A program made the position numbers and the translations under genes. Positions 2,994 to 10,122 of a DNA stretch of 10,122 bases are shown piece by piece. This stretch comes from Candidatus Iainarchaeum sp. (GTDB taxonomy: Archaea; Iainarchaeota; Iainarchaeia; Iainarchaeales; CSSED10-239): contig JAQVRT010000027.1 in assembly GCA_028700905.1 (NCBI GenBank), positions 1 through 10,122 on the forward strand, in the 5' to 3' direction. Position 1 is the stretch's first letter; the number at the start of each line of letters is the position of its first letter. The notes under the pieces are model-generated. The model was not told where the DNA came from. It searched no databases and worked only from the letters and a program-made list of their open reading frames with translations.

Positions 2994-2994
2994 G

Positions 2995-3067
2995 TGCCTC
3001 GAGCCAGATTTGAACTGGCGGTCTCCAGATTATGAGTCTGGCGCTTTAACCACTAAGCCACCGAGGC
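2995..3067 (-). tRNA. tRNA with CAU anticodon: elongator tRNA-Met, or tRNA-Ile2 if C34 is modified. No encoded CCA.
   Basis: The reverse complement folds by hand into a cloverleaf: GCCUCGG UG GCUU AGUGGUUA AAGC G CCAGA CUCAUAA UCUGG AGACC GCCAG UUCAAAU CUGGC UCGAGGC A. It has a 7-bp acceptor stem (one G-U), a 4-bp D stem, a 5-bp anticodon stem and a 5-bp T stem with a UUCAAAU loop. The anticodon is CAU and the discriminator is A. G1-C72 and the lack of a GGG/CCC anticodon stem argue against an initiator. The sequence is GC-rich against an AT-rich background. Confidence 0.92.
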
Positions 3068-3156: not shown

Positions 3157-3855
3157 TTATTTTTGTGCAGAAACCCTATAAACAAGCATTCTCTTAGAAT
3201 TAAAAGACTGCATATAAAAAGATCTGTAATTAACAGGAATATTTTTAGTTTCAACTAAAGATACATTTACTTTTTTAAAATTATTTGAAAAAGCAGAATT
3301 AATATTTTCTAAATATTTATCCTTTGATATAAGTTCAGCTTCTCTAAAAGTATAAACAATTACTTTTCCTCCAGGTTTTAATTTTTTAGAAATTAAATCA
3401 ACTACTTTTTGAGTATATTTCTTAGACCCTGGGTTTACAATTGAGAAGACATTAAAAAATTGAATGAAATTTAAAACTTTTAAATTATTAAAATTTTTAG
3501 CTCTTGAATAAAAACCTAAAGCAAAATCACTTACAACAAGATCTAAAGAATTATTTTTAAATCTTGAAAGACCATTTACAAAATCTTCTTTATATTGTTT
3601 TAAATTTTTAGGAACTGGTTTAAATTGTCTTTTTTCTTTTAAACCGAAATTTTTAAATCTCATTGATTCATGAACATAAGATTCACTTTTTATATCTTTT
3701 AAATCAATTCCAAAAAACATAAATCCAGGAAACTTTTCAGCTAAAACTTTAGATCTAAATGCAGCATCTTCACCTACATTTCCTAAATGTACAATTTTTC
3801 TTTTTGAAGAAGTATTACTTTTTACAAATAAATTAGAACTTTTTTTTAACACCAT
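3157..3855 (-). CDS. Hypothetical protein, probable Rossmann-fold (class I SAM-dependent) methyltransferase-like
   Basis: The 232-aa ORF has MTase-like strings in canonical order: IVHLGNVGEDAA (atypical motif I, no GxGxG), FFGIDLKD (motif II-like acidic end), LDLVVSDFAL (motif IV-like), and KLKPGGKVIVYTF (the classic post-motif LKPGG). This assignment rests on motif resemblance only. Confidence 0.4.
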   Translation of the reverse strand: MVLKKSSNLFVKSNTSSKRKIVHLGNVGEDAAFRSKVLAEKFPGFMFFGIDLKDIKSESYVHESMRFKNFGLKEKRQFKPVPKNLKQYKEDFVNGLSRFKNNSLDLVVSDFALGFYSRAKNFNNLKVLNFIQFFNVFSIVNPGSKKYTQKVVDLISKKLKPGGKVIVYTFREAELISKDKYLENINSAFSNNFKKVNVSLVETKNIPVNYRSFYMQSFNSKRMLVYRVSAQK

Positions 3856-3870
3856 ATAAAGCTACCAAAA

Positions 3871-4542
3871 TTAATTTTCTCTTCTTCTAACAGAAACAGA
3901 ATCTTTTTCAGGATCATAAATAATAACAGTATCTAAAAGACCTAAAAAAACACCAGTTTCTAAAACACCAGGAATGTTTCTTACAGAATATTCAAAATCA
4001 TCTAAAGTAATATTTTTATCTAATTTTATTTTTGCAAGAAAATGACCAATCTCTGTTTTTATAAATTCAGAGTTAGAATCATAAAGAACTTGAGCTATAC
4101 CAAAACTTTGCAAATGTATGATTGTTCTTTGCCATGCAAAAGTTGAAATTTCAACACATACTTCACAATTAATCTCAGGCACATATTTTTTTGTATTTGT
4201 AAGAACTACAAGTTTTAAAGCAGATTGAGAAATCATCTTATCTCTAATAAAAGAATTTGTTTTTATTTTTATAAAATTATTATAATAATCAACTTGATCT
4301 CCAAGCTCTAAAGCAACATCAATCTCTTTATCATTTAAAGAAACAATATTCTGTTTTAAAAAACTTAAATGTTTTGATTGCTTTGAATTAACAGCCACAA
4401 AATATACTACTTTGTTTTCTTGTTCTAAATATTTAACAAGCAAAGAAATAAATTCTAAGTCTTTTGAAAAAGGAGCTATAGCTATTGTATTTTTATTATT
4501 TATTTCTTTAATAAATTCTTGAACAATTAATGATAGATTCAT
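3871..4542 (-). CDS. rpiA: Divergent ribose-5-phosphate isomerase A (RpiA)-fold protein
   Basis: The protein is collinear with RpiA along its whole length. IDVALELGDQVD aligns with the DGADE block, IKIKTNSFIRDK with the IKGGGxxxxxEK block, VCVEISTFA with PVEVIPxA, and the highly RpiA-specific C-terminal NIPGVLETGVFLGLLDTVII with IPGVVExGLF...aD.vlvg. The N-terminal GxGTGST phosphate loop is not conserved (IAIAPFSK). Confidence 0.55.
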   Translation of the reverse strand: MNLSLIVQEFIKEINNKNTIAIAPFSKDLEFISLLVKYLEQENKVVYFVAVNSKQSKHLSFLKQNIVSLNDKEIDVALELGDQVDYYNNFIKIKTNSFIRDKMISQSALKLVVLTNTKKYVPEINCEVCVEISTFAWQRTIIHLQSFGIAQVLYDSNSEFIKTEIGHFLAKIKLDKNITLDDFEYSVRNIPGVLETGVFLGLLDTVIIYDPEKDSVSVRRREN

Positions 4543-4678: not shown

Positions 4679-4921
4679 TTATAAATCTTTTTTAGGTTTT
4701 AAAACTACTTTTTCTTTTATAACAAGATCTTTCTTATTTTCCTCTAAAAGAGATACTCTTTTATTTAAAACTTCTATCTTTGAGTTTAAGATATCAAATT
4801 TAGCATCATTTGATGAAAAATTAAAAGATCTATTTTTTCTTACAATTACATAAGATAATAAGAGATTACCTATAAAAAAAATAATTATAAAAATTATTAA
4901 AATAACTGTTAAAGCATCCAT
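4679..4921 (-). CDS. Small membrane-anchored coiled-coil protein (hypothetical), last gene of the PIN-containing operon
   Basis: The 80-aa ORF has an N-terminal TM helix (LTVILIIFIIIFFIGNLLLSYVIV) followed by a heptad-like charged helix (KFDILNSKIEVLNKRVSLLEENKKDL). A GAGGU Shine-Dalgarno site (complement of 4931-4935) lies 9 nt upstream of the ATG, 23 nt after the upstream gene. Confidence 0.6.
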   Translation of the reverse strand: MDALTVILIIFIIIFFIGNLLLSYVIVRKNRSFNFSSNDAKFDILNSKIEVLNKRVSLLEENKKDLVIKEKVVLKPKKDL

Positions 4922-4930
4922 ATCAAACTA

Positions 4931-4935
4931 ACCTC
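4931..4935 (-). promoter_or_regulatory. Shine-Dalgarno site (GAGGU) for the 80-aa membrane protein gene
   Basis: The plus strand reads acctc, so the minus strand reads GAGGU, 9 nt upstream of the ATG at 4921-4919. This is complementary to the conserved 16S 3' tail CCUCC/UCACC. Confidence 0.55.
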
Positions 4936-4944
4936 TTTTTTATT

Positions 4945-5703
4945 CTAAACAAAAATATAATTTCCTTTTCTTTTTTCAATTATTAGACCTTCTTCTTTTA
5001 AAATCTCAATTACAACTTTTAAAACTTCTTTTGAATAATTAAGTTTTAAAGAAAGAAAATCAAGAGAAAAATTTTCTTTTAAATTAAGATTAAATAAATT
5101 ATTTTTAATTTCTATAAATAAATATTTATAAATAACATAATAATTACCATCAAAAGACTTAATACCAATAATTTCTTTAGATTTTATTAATTCTTCAAAA
5201 TCAAGAGAAAACTTTTTTGCAAGATTAACATCTTTTAAAATAATATATTTATTTGTTTGAAAATCTGAAAAGTCAGAATTTTTAGATTCACTAAAATCTT
5301 TTTTAGAATTTATGTCTTTATAGTTTGAAGATTGATAAACTCCTTTCTTGTATTTAGAAGACATTTTATAGATTTCAATTTCATTATTTTTAAGCATATC
5401 TTTAAAAATTAATAAATCTTCTTTATTCAATAGCTTTTCAAAAGAACCTTCAACTTTATCTTGAAAAGTTAAAGATTTATCATTTAGTAAATGTAATATT
5501 TTTTTTTTTCTTAAATCAACAGAATCATCTTCTTTAACAGAACCCTCTTCTTTTTTAGAAAGTGATTCTTTTAAAGATATTTTTAAAAAAGAGCCTTCTT
5601 TTTCTAAAATTAAAGGTTTACCTATAAATACCTCTAAATCACTAGATTCTTCTTTTGAATCAACATTTAAAAAATAAACTTGATTTTTTTTAACAATTTT
5701 CAT
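4945..5703 (-). CDS. Hypothetical protein with C-terminal winged-helix-like segment(s)
   Basis: The 252-aa ORF has a start codon that overlaps the upstream stop as ATGA (5700-5703). Its C-terminus, SKEVLKVVIEILKEEGLIIEKRKGNYIFV, resembles a recognition helix plus beta-wing of a wHTH. Two earlier segments (ILHLLNDKSLTFQDK...NNEIEIYKMSSKYKKGVY and LAKKFSLDFEELIKSKEIIGIKSFDGNYYVI) have a similar helix-then-hairpin pattern. No confident family assignment. Confidence 0.5.
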   Translation of the reverse strand: MKIVKKNQVYFLNVDSKEESSDLEVFIGKPLILEKEGSFLKISLKESLSKKEEGSVKEDDSVDLRKKKILHLLNDKSLTFQDKVEGSFEKLLNKEDLLIFKDMLKNNEIEIYKMSSKYKKGVYQSSNYKDINSKKDFSESKNSDFSDFQTNKYIILKDVNLAKKFSLDFEELIKSKEIIGIKSFDGNYYVIYKYLFIEIKNNLFNLNLKENFSLDFLSLKLNYSKEVLKVVIEILKEEGLIIEKRKGNYIFV

Positions 5704-6368
5704 AAATTTTCAATATATTCATTAATTTCTTCAAAAGAAACTGAACATCCTTTAAACTTTAAAGCATATAAAGCGCCCTTTAAATTATTTTTATCTTTAA
5801 AAACACTTGATAACAAGCCTTTTTTATAAGCATACACTAAAAAATCTACAGATCTAATAACATTCACATTACCTATAATCTCCATAAACTTAATATATTT
5901 TTGTTCATCAATTGAAACTTTACTAGTTTTATATTTTCTTTTAAAAATTTCTAAAAGACCATGAGGTTGTTCAATAATCATTCTTGTTGTTCTTTCATCA
6001 ACTGCTAAAAAAGAAGCATCTGTAAGACCTAAAAGAGCTAAAGATTCAGCTTCTCCAATTTGAATAATTTTTATTGGATTTCCTCTAACATAAAACATAT
6101 TATTTGTAAGATACATTATTTTATTTGTAGTTTCATCTAAAGCCTTATCACTTTGATAAACATCAAAAATATGTGTTGAAATTTCTTCTTCAATTCTTGT
6201 AGAACTAAGTTTAAATCTCATAACATTTCTAACTTTATCAATACATTCAAACTTAACATTTTTAGTAATTATAAACTCTCCTAAACTCTCTTTTAAATCT
6301 TTAAATAAAGGAATAAAACAAGTTTCAGAAAAACTAATAATTACACCAGAATCAAATACTATTTTCAT
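5700..6368 (-). CDS. PIN-like nuclease domain protein (DUF3368 / COG2405-like) with an internal insertion
   Basis: The 222-aa ORF shows an N-terminal MKIVFDSGVII (acidic D6), IGEAESLAL (E106/E108), LAVDERTTR (D124), then VIRSVDFLVYAYKKGLLSS and LKGALYALKFKGCSVSFEEINEYI. These are collinear with the DUF3368 consensus as I recall it (GEAEaiaLA...lLiDDrkgR...viGtlGvLllAkkkGli...L...gfris.el). Its ATG overlaps the upstream stop as ATGA (6365-6368), and a strong AGGUGAU SD precedes it. Confidence 0.6.
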   Translation of the reverse strand: MKIVFDSGVIISFSETCFIPLFKDLKESLGEFIITKNVKFECIDKVRNVMRFKLSSTRIEEEISTHIFDVYQSDKALDETTNKIMYLTNNMFYVRGNPIKIIQIGEAESLALLGLTDASFLAVDERTTRMIIEQPHGLLEIFKRKYKTSKVSIDEQKYIKFMEIIGNVNVIRSVDFLVYAYKKGLLSSVFKDKNNLKGALYALKFKGCSVSFEEINEYIENL

Positions 6369-6952
6369 TGATTATCACCTTTATCTTTTTCAGACATTAT
6401 TTCTAAAAGATGCACTCTTTCATTTATACTTTTAAATTGATTATCTTCATCTGGCATTTTTGTAATTCCCACATAAGACATTAATTGTTCTTTTGTAATT
6501 GATAAAAGATCAGAAGATTGAGATGCAGATAAACCATAAGCATATGCAGTTGATGCAAGTTTTACTCTTCCATCATCAATAACAACACTTACATATCTTC
6601 CAAGTTCATGATCTGCTTTTTTAATTATTTCTATAATATTTTTAATATAATTATTAAATTTACTAGGATCTTCTTCTCTATAAACATTTAGTGCAGAATT
6701 TAAATTTTCAACAATTGATTTTTTATAATCTGCCCAAGAATTTGTTTGTGAAATATGTTTTTTAGAAATTATTTTTCTTAAACCATAAATCATTACACAA
6801 ATTTCTGAATAATCTTTATTAAAATTTATAATTGCTTGCTCTAAAGTATTATTCTCTATTAAATGTAAAGATTCATAATCATTTCTTTCAAGAAAAACAA
6901 TAGTAGATTTAATAATATCAGTTAATTTTAAGTTTTCAATAATTTCTTCCAT
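6365..6952 (-). CDS. Hypothetical protein: about 125-aa helical N-terminal domain plus a UPF0175-like (antitoxin-type HTH) segment and an acidic tail
   Basis: This 195-aa ORF is the first gene of the operon. The segment RVKLASTAYAYGLSASQSSDLLSITKEQLMSYVGITKM resembles the UPF0175/COG2886 pattern as I recall it (a..lY..G.iSlgkAAeLlGis+.efme.L...gi), which is the usual partner of DUF3368 PIN proteins. The N-terminal domain has no recognisable family. Confidence 0.5.
   Translation of the reverse strand: MEEIIENLKLTDIIKSTIVFLERNDYESLHLIENNTLEQAIINFNKDYSEICVMIYGLRKIISKKHISQTNSWADYKKSIVENLNSALNVYREEDPSKFNNYIKNIIEIIKKADHELGRYVSVVIDDGRVKLASTAYAYGLSASQSSDLLSITKEQLMSYVGITKMPDEDNQFKSINERVHLLEIMSEKDKGDNQ
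6374..6380 (-). promoter_or_regulatory. Shine-Dalgarno site (AGGUGAU) for the PIN-like gene, embedded in the 3' end of the upstream ORF
   Basis: The plus strand reads atcacct, so the minus strand reads AGGUGAU, 5 nt upstream of the ATG at 6368-6366. Confidence 0.6.
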
Positions 6953-7059
6953 CTTTTATCAACTCATTTAATATATTTTTTATAGATATATGTATAAATA
7001 TATAAAACAAAACATATTTATATTATTTTATATATAGATAATATTGGGTAGAATAACAT
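6953..7059. promoter_or_regulatory. Divergent promoter region with two archaeal TATA boxes, both about 28-30 nt from the respective start codons (leaderless or near-leaderless mRNAs)
   Basis: The plus-strand TTTATATA (7027-7034) matches the archaeal TTTAWATA consensus, with its centre about 29 nt before the ATG at 7060. The minus-strand TATAAAAA (complement of 6977-6984) has its centre about 28 nt before the ATG at 6952. Neither first gene has an SD, whereas internal genes do. Confidence 0.6.
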
Positions 7060-7542
7060 ATGAGTCTTTATAAAGAAAATAAATTTGATTTTTTAAAAAA
7101 TAAATATATATGGATAATTATAGGGGCTATACTTGTTCTTGCTATATTAGGTTATCTTTTAACAATGGTTAACTGGAAAGGAATGTTTGAAAAAGATAAC
7201 ATAAAAGTTAAATTTCAAAATAATCCTTTAATTGTTTCAGAAAAAGACAATACTTTAATTGAAATTACTTTAATTAACAACACAGAGAAAGATTTAGATA
7301 ATCTAGAAGTAACCATTAAAGATGTTGAAAATAATTTTGAAATATTTTGTCCAGATTCACAAGAAGATAAAACAAAAGTTATAATTCCAAAAATGGCAAG
7401 TGGTAATGAAAGAATAATTACATGTAATGTAAGGTATGATCCTACAAAAGATTTTTTTGAAGGCACATATAGTTTTGACATAGATTATTCAATTGAAGAT
7501 TATATTTATACAAAAAGAGCAAATTTAGAAGTTAGAAGGTGA
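7060..7542 (+). CDS. Membrane-anchored protein with an extracytoplasmic beta-rich (CARDB/Ig-like) domain, hypothetical
   Basis: The 160-aa ORF has an N-terminal TM anchor (IWIIIGAILVLAILGYLLTMV). An alternating beta-strand pattern follows (LIEITLINNTEKDLDNLEVTIKD...KVIIPKMASGNERIITCNVRY...GTYSFDIDYS), reminiscent of CARDB-type domains. Two Cys residues are present. Confidence 0.5.
   Translation: MSLYKENKFDFLKNKYIWIIIGAILVLAILGYLLTMVNWKGMFEKDNIKVKFQNNPLIVSEKDNTLIEITLINNTEKDLDNLEVTIKDVENNFEIFCPDSQEDKTKVIIPKMASGNERIITCNVRYDPTKDFFEGTYSFDIDYSIEDYIYTKRANLEVRR
7538..7542 (+). promoter_or_regulatory. Shine-Dalgarno site (GGUGA) for the 247-aa membrane protein gene, overlapping the upstream stop codon
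   Basis: In aaGGTGAaaccaaaATG, the GGTGA at 7538-7542 lies 7 nt upstream of the ATG at 7550. The TGA of the preceding ORF is part of the motif. Confidence 0.6.
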
Positions 7543-7549
7543 AACCAAA

Positions 7550-8293
7550 ATGATTAGTAGTGTATGGAAAGGATTTAATTTTTTTAAAAAAAAAGAATTT
7601 TTCAAAATATTTATAGCATTTTTGTTATATGGGGTTTCAACTTTCTTTTTAATAGACTATATTAATAATATAATAGATCAACTAGATTTATTATATGTTA
7701 AAACCATAAACTACCCTCAATTAATAATTAACACCTTAGGTTTTGAAATTTTATTTATTTTAGGTTCAATTTTTGTTATTCTAATAACATACATCCTACT
7801 TTCAATAACAATTGCAAATACAGAAAGTAAAAAGAAAATAAATTTTTTAGAAAAACTAAGATTAAGTTTTAAGTATTCAGTATTATTTTTCTTTATATTT
7901 TTAGCATATATAATCTTGTTTGCTATTTTAGGAAGCGTAATTAATATATTTACAATAATATTAATGATATTACTATTTTTTTCATTAATAATGGTTATAT
8001 TTATGTTCTATATTGGAAGCATGTTTATTGGAATATATAATTTAGATATTAAAATTGCTTTAGAAAAATCAAAAGACTTTTTTAAGAAAAGATTTTGGAG
8101 AACTATTGCTATTTTGATATTAATATATTTAGTAAATGAATTAATTTTTATTATTTTAGACTTCTTATATTTTAATATTTTTATATACAACACAATAGCT
8201 GCAATAATTACAATACAGATAACCTTTTTTATAGGTACAATATATGTATTAAATGCTTTAGCAATATATGTAAAATCTCAAAAATTTATATGA
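7550..8293 (+). CDS. Polytopic integral membrane protein, hypothetical (DUF975/YciC-like architecture is a guess)
   Basis: The 247-aa ORF has about 5-6 long hydrophobic segments separated by short basic loops (KKKINFLEKLRLSFK, EKSKDFFKKRFWR). It starts 7 nt after the upstream gene and has an SD. Confidence 0.55.
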   Translation: MISSVWKGFNFFKKKEFFKIFIAFLLYGVSTFFLIDYINNIIDQLDLLYVKTINYPQLIINTLGFEILFILGSIFVILITYILLSITIANTESKKKINFLEKLRLSFKYSVLFFFIFLAYIILFAILGSVINIFTIILMILLFFSLIMVIFMFYIGSMFIGIYNLDIKIALEKSKDFFKKRFWRTIAILILIYLVNELIFIILDFLYFNIFIYNTIAAIITIQITFFIGTIYVLNALAIYVKSQKFI

Positions 8294-9108: not shown

Positions 9109-10122
9109 TCTTAAACTTTACTCGAACCATTAGTATTAGAGAGCTTAAATACTCGCCCGAAGGCTTGCATCGTATACTCCTAACCTATCAAACCGGTCTT
9201 CTTCCGGAGTTCTCGTCTCGCATTTCTGCGAAAATGGCTGTCTCGTTTTAGGGTTCGCTTCGTGCTTAGATGCTTTCAGCACTTATCGAATACAGCGTAG
9301 CTACTGGGCATTGCCTTGTCAGACAACCCACACACCAGAGACTGCGACCCATCGTTCCTCTCGTACTAAACGGATCTTACCTTCAAACAACCAACACAAC
9401 CAATAGATAGGAACCAAACTGTCTCGCAACGTTCTTAACCCAGCTAATGTACGGCTTTAATGAGTGAACACCTCCACCCTTGGCTACTTGTGCACAGCCA
9501 GGATGCCGTAAGCCGACAGCGAGGTAGCAAACCGCGGGGTCGATGTGAACTCTCACCCGCGACAACCCAGTTACCCCCAGGGTAAGTTCACTGTCAGACT
9601 AGGCCCCCATAAATAGGGACACTAGCGTTCGCTAGACCCAAGTTTCCTTCCAACGTTCCGTGCTTTTAGGAACATTGTTAAGCCTGCTTTTGGTCTTGTC
9701 CTCTACGGCTGATTTCTGACCAGCCTGAGCAGACCTTTGGACGCCCCTGATATCTTTTCAGGGGCGTACCGCCCCAGTCCAACCACCCGATCAAGTGATG
9801 TCCGTCATATAGACGTAAGTTGTATTTTTCCTACTAGATGGTGTTACATTGGCGTCTGACTACTTCCTAGCGAAAGCAGCTAAAGCGACTCCCATCTACG
9901 CTCTATAGTAAAAACAATACAACAACACCAGACTGTGGTAAACCTCCGTGGGGTCTTATCCTCCCATTGGTTGTCCGTGGCTTATTCACCACGCTAAGCA
10001 AGTTCACTAAGTTAAAGTTAGGGACAGTGACGATCTCGTTACTTCCTTGGTGCAAGCCGACATTTAATCGGCAAGGTATTACGCTACCATGAGAGCCTCA
10101 GAGTTAGGCCCGCTCTTTACCA
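9108..10122 (-). rRNA. 23S (LSU) rRNA, 3' roughly 1 kb (E. coli about 1925-2904 equivalent, domains IV-VI). The 5' part lies beyond the window end.
   Basis: By-eye alignment of the reverse complement to E. coli 23S is collinear throughout. Landmarks include GAUAAGUGCUGAAAGCAUCUAAGCACGAAGC (complement of 9257-9287), the sarcin-ricin loop AGUACGAGAGGAAC (complement of 9354-9367), GCUGGGUUAAGAACGUUGCGAGACAGUUUGGUUCCUAUC, the A-loop GGAGGUGUUCACUC, GGGGGUAACUGGG...GAGAGUUCACAUCGAC, GGACUGGGGCGGUA and AAGACCCCACGGAGGUUUAC. GC content is far above the flanks. The 3' end is estimated from homology to ...ACUAAUGAACCGUGAGGCUUAACCUU, with an uncertainty of about 15 nt. Confidence 0.95.

Follow-up and report, generated by a model that had tools for sequence, protein, structure and literature searches.

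Proteins of the UPF0175 family (PF03683/COG2886) have been reported exclusively adjoining PIN domain proteins of the COG2405 group (Matelska 2017, PMC5499597), and the combination of UPF0175 with a COG2405 PIN protein (PF11848/DUF3368) was predicted to form a type II toxin-antitoxin (TA) system (Makarova 2009, PMC2701414). In DPANN archaea, a conserved MNT-HEPN fusion (cls.004259, NEQ050) was described as a TA-type module in a housekeeping context, in a survey that counted 47 DPANN-specific clusters and listed NEQ484 as an 'alpha helical protein in house-keeping context' (Makarova, Wolf, Koonin 2019, PMC6393860). Here, we analyzed a 10,122-nucleotide stretch of contig JAQVRT010000027.1 (Candidatus Iainarchaeum sp., assembly GCA_028700905.1; hereafter the window), in which the gene of a 195-aa helix-turn-helix (HTH) partner protein (g1, 6365–6952, minus strand) lies upstream of the gene of a 222-aa PIN-domain protein (g2, 5700–6368, minus strand; VapC group, COG2405/PDC-S70-like) and overlaps it by an ATGA stop/start sequence (6365–6368, minus strand). 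An earlier reading of the same letters (the sequence-only reading) had combined both genes with two further ones, g3 (4945–5703, minus strand, 252 aa) and g4 (4679–4921, minus strand, 80 aa), into one translationally coupled TA- or defense-like module. All four open reading frames (ORFs) have the lengths and coordinates given there. The conserved unit, however, is the g1-g2 pair and not the four genes: g1 is the obligate genomic partner of g2, and the pair, which keeps its synteny and follows taxonomy, has housekeeping genes around it.

The GTDB species representatives were scanned with the DERTTRM motif of g2, which yielded 360 loci (an exact-motif scan and not a full prevalence census of DPANN). 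The 80 best of these loci, each from a different assembly and numbered here with the prefix L, were inspected for linkage, and g3 and g4 were counted over 82 loci. Most of the 80 were labeled as Iainarchaeota, Micrarchaeota, Woesearchaeota, Pacearchaeota or Nanoarchaeota, together with a few bacterial and Thaumarchaeota labels. In 76 of them g2 had a g1 homolog upstream and on the same strand; the remaining four are cut at a contig edge. The 4-nt overlap between the two genes recurs in 30/78 pairs, and a further 28 pairs overlap otherwise or are separated by ≤ 30 nt (58/78 in total). In 13 loci (including L024, L046, L060, L067, L072, L075, L081, and L086) unrelated genes of the same strand stand between g1 and g2, tightly packed and in many cases themselves overlapping by 4 nt; judged by their sequences and not by a family search, these look like aminotransferase-, glycosyltransferase-, histidine-phosphatase-, HD-domain- and YjbQ-like genes as well as small membrane proteins. 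Such insertions imply that gene overlap in DPANN operons does not by itself signify a functional link. The g2 family also contains g1-g2 fusion proteins of 403–430 aa. As all eight of them formed singleton clusters, frameshift artefacts were considered, an explanation that was rejected for two: three independent assemblies carry the identical P0243 sequence and three contigs the identical P0189 sequence, and at least these two fusions are real. No second copy of the pair was seen in any genome inspected (80 loci). The g1 homolog of one locus (L004:4863-5693) and the g2 homolog of another (L028:1301-1972) are each split into two ORFs, by frameshift or assembly error or by rare pseudogenization.

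A neighbor-joining tree of g2 showed four clades that track taxonomy, each with its own downstream situation: Forterrea-like Iainarchaeota, where g3-g4 follow; other Iainarchaeota, with a GNAT acetyltransferase gene, often in 4-nt overlap; Micrarchaeota, with an ERCC4/XPF-HhH nuclease gene; and Woese-/Pace-/Nanoarchaeota without a fixed downstream partner. The GNAT gene (154 aa) lies directly 3' of g2 in most of the other Iainarchaeota (L017-L061; e.g., L027:1635-2099), and the ERCC4/XPF-HhH gene (228 aa) takes the same place in Micrarchaeota (L034-L086; e.g., L077:5683-6369), where it was counted immediately 3' of g2 in 15 loci. Contigs labeled as Methanosarcinales, Falkowbacteria, Chloroflexi/Chloroflexota or Thaumarchaeota (L039, L041, L042, L043, and L059) nest in the Iainarchaeota or Woesearchaeota clades, and because of this placement inside DPANN they are likely mis-binned metagenome-assembled genomes. 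The neighbors of the pair include the housekeeping genes for RpiA, Spt4, RpoE, RNase P p30, PheRS, ProRS and a DRG GTPase, and further a PIN_9 protein, tRNA, rRNA, GNAT and XPF genes; synteny with RpiA is retained at 56% identity (L003). We found no defense-associated context for g1-g2, whose neighbors are housekeeping genes. The pair does not lie in a variable island, and its synteny and congruence with taxonomy disfavor the abortive-infection-type module that the sequence-only reading had considered.

The AlphaFold2 (AF2) model of g2 (pLDDT 96, pTM 0.90) was searched against the PDB with Foldseek, and the first 12 matches as well as most of the top 50 were PIN or VapC proteins. The best ones were VapC26 (5x3t) and VapC20 (5wz4) of M. 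tuberculosis, PAE0151 of Pyrobaculum (2fe1) and the VapC of Shigella (prob 1.0, TM to target 0.6–0.7), and the VapC matches altogether ranged over prob 0.8–1.0 and TM to target 0.56–0.71. Judged by this model, g2 has the PIN alpha/beta/alpha fold and belongs to the VapC group within the PIN domain-like superfamily. Its acidic site was checked in an 83-sequence alignment and, by its conservation, the predicted acidic center is intact: D6 and E41 are conserved in 81/81 sequences each, E106, E125, and E133 in 83/83, and D124 in 82/83, the single replacement being E. The stretch D124-M130 was the search motif, which biases conservation there, while the other acidic positions are independent of it. 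R126, T127, R129, R172, S173, K204, and G207 are further conserved residues.

An exhaustive profile search with g2 delineated a family of 626 representatives, almost all of them 215–240 aa long, that is closed and stops short of COG2405 in general. When the window's four proteins were scanned against Pfam, NCBIfam and PADLOC, nothing above threshold was obtained. The closest profile family of g2 in the fresh search was PDC-S70 of PADLOC, matched by the window protein over residues 101–132 only (E 0.0072, 14.2 bits), and by 25 of 40 relatives (best E 5.6e-9) over the GEAE...DERTTR catalytic core. PF11848 (DUF3368) had no match in a fresh hmmscan, either at E ≤ 1 for the window g2 or at E ≤ 0.1 among the 40 relatives. 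Precomputed Pfam tables list PF11848.14 for many g2 relatives, a tag that is faint for the 96% ortholog, unmarked for P0089 and weak for the fusions; these tags and the current Pfam copy thus disagree for the family. Consequently, of the 'DUF3368-type PIN' in the sequence-only reading the PIN part is well borne out by the model and its VapC matches, and the DUF3368 part comes only from precomputed tags. Sequence and profile searches of g1, g2 and g3 against PDB sequences returned chance or low-complexity matches apart from the C-terminal winged HTH (wHTH) of g3 (see below); an AcrIE7-like match (E 0.12) and designed helical repeats were dismissed on these grounds. An identity of g2 with HARP (protein-only RNase P) was set aside, as no PIN_5 match appeared in Pfam scans of g2 and its relatives; the RNase P p30 gene near the pair in L001 was counted against it as well, and HARP (PIN_5 family) was absent from all DPANN genomes of a published survey (PMC6380272).

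The partner protein g1 consists of an N-terminal helical bundle (residues ~ 10–117), an HTH (~ 124–163) and a C-terminal tail (165–195). Its AF2 model, built from a shallower alignment, reached a pLDDT of 82.6, with ~ 95 in the bundle and < 50 in the tail. Despite this low value, the tail is among the most conserved parts of the g1 family and carries the motif G-x-T-K-M-P-D-E-D ... E-R-V-H-L-L-E. Sub-threshold matches to UPF0175 (PF03683) were obtained in 26/78 g1 relatives, always on the HTH (~ residues 119–168; best E 1e-4), and ten relatives scored 13.6–16.9 bits against a cut-off of 27.9 bits; the window g1 itself had no PF03683 match in a fresh Pfam scan. The helical domain that the sequence-only reading had attributed to g1 is therefore present in the model as a bundle, and its UPF0175 label holds at the sub-threshold level only. 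Foldseek gave no fold match for g1 in the PDB at E ≤ 0.5. A HEPN fold was rejected, the respective Foldseek matches being faint (prob 0.06), and R59-x6-H66, which resembles the Rx4-6H motif of HEPN proteins, was likewise dismissed, being found in the close subclade only and lost in L001 and in the broad alignment. In L001 g1 has diverged faster than g2 (25% vs. 38% identity). NEQ484 of N. equitans (cls.004340) could be g1.

Compared with UPF0175/COG2405 systems, the pair has the same arrangement of an HTH protein upstream of a co-directional and overlapping VapC-group PIN protein, together with the recurrent, sub-threshold UPF0175 matches on the g1 HTH and the precomputed PF11848 tags on g2 relatives. 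As a statement of remote similarity to the COG2405 TA-like class, the TA-like pairing proposed by the sequence-only reading therefore describes it fairly. The enlargement of both partners that it pointed out was also found: g1 has 195 aa against the 75 positions of the UPF0175 profile, with an extra helical bundle of 110 residues that has no fold match, and g2 has 222 aa against roughly 160 (the PDC-S70 profile has a length of 162). Unlike the known systems, no member of the g1 or g2 families scanned afresh reaches the Pfam thresholds, the g2 family is closed and separate from general COG2405, and the pair is vertically inherited in a housekeeping context instead of being patchy and mobile. 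The VapC toxins named above, the best structural matches of g2, share its PIN alpha/beta/alpha core with acidic residues where the core strands end; however, their identity to g2 is 9–17% and the TM to query only 0.29–0.48, the latter because g2 has ~ 90 additional residues (an insert and a C-terminal helical extension). In contrast to VapBC, the partner of g2 is not an AbrB, RHH or Phd antitoxin. PDC-S70, an unvalidated candidate for single-gene PIN defense, is the nearest profile family, yet g2 has its obligate partner upstream, stands among housekeeping genes and is inherited vertically, and the window protein is a marginal match. The MNT-HEPN cluster is similar in being a TA-type module unusually conserved across DPANN, set among housekeeping genes and sometimes fused, and differs in combining a nucleotidyltransferase with HEPN instead of an HTH with a PIN domain; there is no homology between the two.

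The genes g3 and g4 lie outside this conserved core. Their relatives were found in 12/82 loci, all in the Forterrea-like subclade (g2 identity ≥ 55%), with GNAT or ERCC4/XPF genes following g2 elsewhere, and the idea of a conserved four-gene module failed this check of co-occurrence. Within the subclade g4 always comes next after g3, and g3 is directly 3' of g2 in ten of the 12 loci; in the other two (L003 and L012) g3/g4 begin downstream of g2 at a distance of ~ 1.1 kb, an interval that in L003 contains a 329-aa gene of the opposite strand. The L003 homolog of g4, again after g3, is 40% identical to the window g4. We conclude that g3-g4 form a separate pair of the Forterrea-like subclade, probably packed there into the same tightly spaced transcription unit. 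The ATGA stop/start overlap of g2 and g3 (5700–5703, minus strand), described correctly by the sequence-only reading like that of g1 and g2, recurs with the tight g3-g4 spacing in L005-L008 and L016. It probably reflects genome compaction and is not proof of a shared function, since equally tight overlaps join g2 or g1 to unrelated genes (GNAT, XPF, histidine phosphatase, glycosyltransferase) in other DPANN lineages. The 23-nt spacer between g3 and g4 (4922–4944, minus strand) contains, as that reading had noted, a Shine-Dalgarno-like (SD-like) GAGGT, 9 nt upstream of the g4 ATG. The 29 homologs of g3 are all Diapherotrites/Iainarchaeota-like. The protein has a conserved N-terminus (MKIVKKNxxYFLN), a conserved center (K68-Y123) and a C-terminal wHTH (~ 206–248), and among the wHTH-like segments suggested for it this C-terminal one was weakly but recurrently supported (HTH_11 in 6/27 members, HTH_24 in 3/27, and PH1932 among PDB sequences with E 0.01). 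For g4 the predicted transmembrane segment was recovered as a single N-terminal hydrophobic helix, followed by a coiled-coil-like C-terminus; a resemblance to PspB (E 8e-4) stayed below threshold.

Taken together, g1-g2 is built like a UPF0175/COG2405 TA system and has the population genetics of a core gene. We favor, with a probability a little above even, the explanation that the pair has been domesticated as a PIN endonuclease under the control of its partner, probably an RNase, and that its role in the cell is constitutive or regulated. Makarova, Wolf and Koonin (2019, PMC6393860) reasoned in the same way for the DPANN-conserved MNT-HEPN module, which serves as a precedent. The g1-g2 pair would descend from the UPF0175-HTH/COG2405-PIN (VapBC-like) TA class and would have become fixed and vertically inherited in DPANN, at least in Iainarchaeota, Micrarchaeota and the Woese-/Pace-/Nanoarchaeota group, with fusion into a single gene in some lineages. 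The g2 protein is predicted to be an active endonuclease dependent on Mg2+/Mn2+, most likely one that cleaves RNA, to which g1 may bind via its conserved, intrinsically flexible C-terminal tail and/or its HTH, and g1 would either gate the active site in the manner of an antitoxin or supply substrate recognition through the extra helical domain. The putative complex would act in constitutive or stress-regulated RNA processing or turnover in these reduced genomes and would not be an addiction or abortive-infection element. The lineage-specific housekeeping RNA-processing function that the sequence-only reading had offered as an alternative thus comes closest to our preference, with the amendment that the lineage is much of DPANN and not one genus. 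Several points weigh against it. The closest profile families of g2 are TA toxins (COG2405) and a candidate defense gene (PDC-S70), and the upstream position of the partner, the two-gene overlap and the faster evolution of the partner look exactly as in a TA system. In addition, none of the 80 loci inspected was from Aenigmatarchaeota, Nanohaloarchaeota or Altiarchaeota, and the lack of relatives of the pair in IMG/VR, PLSDB and phage genomes has to be read with the poor representation of DPANN plasmids and viruses in these collections.

Going beyond the domesticated nuclease, g1-g2 might be an essential, DPANN-specific two-subunit ribonuclease recruited from a TA ancestor, which would replace a missing enzyme of RNA processing or turnover (e.g., in rRNA or tRNA maturation or in mRNA decay) and in which the helical domain of g1 would recognize the substrate; we regard this as possible but doubtful. 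Rather unlikely, in our judgment, is that the pair is a working type II TA system (VapBC-like), old and chromosomally fixed in DPANN, and the mechanism belonging to it is rated equally low: g2 would cleave an essential RNA and arrest growth, and a labile g1 would neutralize g2 and autoregulate the operon. The order of two adjacent co-directional genes, with the HTH protein first, the PIN protein second and 4 nt shared between them, is that of a TA operon, as is the published prediction for the UPF0175/COG2405 pairing (PMC5499597, PMC2701414); the more rapid change of g1 and the VapC toxins at the top of the structural matches agree with it, and the conserved tail of g1, disordered according to the model, is a feature that antitoxins have. 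A distribution that spans phyla in congruence with taxonomy is nevertheless unlike that of patchy TA systems, and the lack of a second copy in any genome among the 80 loci, the 13 loci with unrelated genes between the partners, the absence from the viral, plasmid and phage collections searched and the lack of an interpretable operator in the A+T-rich promoter region all count against it. The genuine single-polypeptide fusions argue against any mechanism that needs separately degraded polypeptides. A mobile TA or abortive-infection element is disfavored because the pair is syntenic, congruent with taxonomy and placed among housekeeping genes.

The remaining explanations are considerably weaker. 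That the four proteins work together in the Forterrea-like subclade, as a nuclease complex tethered or regulated via g3 with its wHTH and the membrane protein g4, would account for the g2/g3 overlap, the tight g3-g4 spacing and the position of g3 directly after g2 in most subclade loci, but every other clade with g1-g2 lacks g3 and g4, the two pairs are separated in L003 and L012 (in the former with an opposite-strand gene inside), and g2 overlaps unrelated GNAT or XPF genes just as tightly elsewhere, which makes this improbable. We give even less credence to g2 as a single-gene antiviral or abortive-infection nuclease of the PDC-S70 type with g1 as its sensor or regulator: although the PADLOC models match more than half of the 40 family members scanned, and PDCs of this kind are reported to be predominantly archaeal and PDCs in general to be enriched in DPANN (PMC12988326), the window g2 reaches only 14 bits, PDC-S70 is itself unvalidated, g1, g3, and g4 have no PADLOC matches, inheritance is vertical, and the pair lies among housekeeping genes and not in defense islands. 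The slimmest chance is left to an action on DNA, with g2 as a structure-specific repair or recombination nuclease and g1 as its DNA-binding subunit. The HTH of g1, the ERCC4/XPF-HhH gene after g2 in Micrarchaeota and the presence of DNA flap nucleases in the PIN-like superfamily (PMC5499597) are in line with it; the structural neighbors of g2, however, are VapC-group RNases and not FEN-group enzymes, and only one phylum shows the XPF link, with GNAT or unrelated genes at this place in other clades.

The window has ~ 22% G+C overall and aligns collinearly, at 95.6% identity, with the complete genome of Candidatus Forterrea multitransposorum (CP045477.1), a member of Diapherotrites/Iainarchaeota within DPANN. 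Upstream of g1, a divergent intergenic region of 107 nt (6953–7059) presumably holds the promoters of both g1 and the adjacent membrane-protein gene. It is almost entirely A+T and contains several TATA-like strings, and the SD-like GAGTTGAT (7/8 positions identical to GAGGTGAT) is situated at 6965–6958, 5 nt upstream of the g1 ATG. The single TATA box and leaderless start described by the sequence-only reading could not be upheld, as a leaderless g1 transcript is not evident with this SD-like string 5 nt before the start. No promoter or operator was assignable in the spacer, where an inverted-repeat search gave many imperfect repeats, none above chance; the search for operators, promoters and terminators is uninformative at 20% G+C. 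On the plus strand, divergent from g1, follow two membrane-protein genes without Pfam match, of 160 aa (7060–7542) and 247 aa (7550–8293), whose position is kept in ~ 10 Forterrea-like loci. An archaeal 23S rRNA gene is represented by its 3' part (3' third) at 9110–10122 (minus strand), which stands out with ~ 50% G+C against the 22% background. Downstream of g4, on the minus strand, are an RpiA-like ribose-5-phosphate isomerase gene (3871–4542; PF06026, E 1.4e-24) and, next to it, the gene of a 232-aa protein with weak methyltransferase similarity (3157–3855), a pair that keeps its place downstream of the g1-g4 region in L003, the relative at 56% identity. These are followed by a tRNA-Met(CAT) gene (2994–3067, minus strand), whose antisense image explains an Rfam match to 'Plastid-ycf2' on the plus strand at 2994–3067, which was rejected.

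DPANN archaea have very small genomes with few lineage-wide genes of unknown function, and a PIN nuclease that at least three DPANN phyla have retained with its partner, in synteny and at times as a fusion, is likely to be important for the biology of these symbionts. Both the PDC-S70 profile annotation and reasoning from ATGA overlaps can mislead in such compact genomes. As 25/40 members of the vertically inherited g2 family match PDC-S70 profiles, the enrichment of PDCs reported for DPANN (PMC12988326) may in part count a core gene rather than defense genes, and if the pair were indeed the essential ribonuclease, many DPANN 'PDC-S70 defense' calls would be this housekeeping enzyme. With two small soluble proteins and a confident fold for the nuclease, g1-g2 is a tractable target and, if our preferred explanation is true, would be the second domesticated TA-type module in DPANN after the MNT-HEPN cluster.

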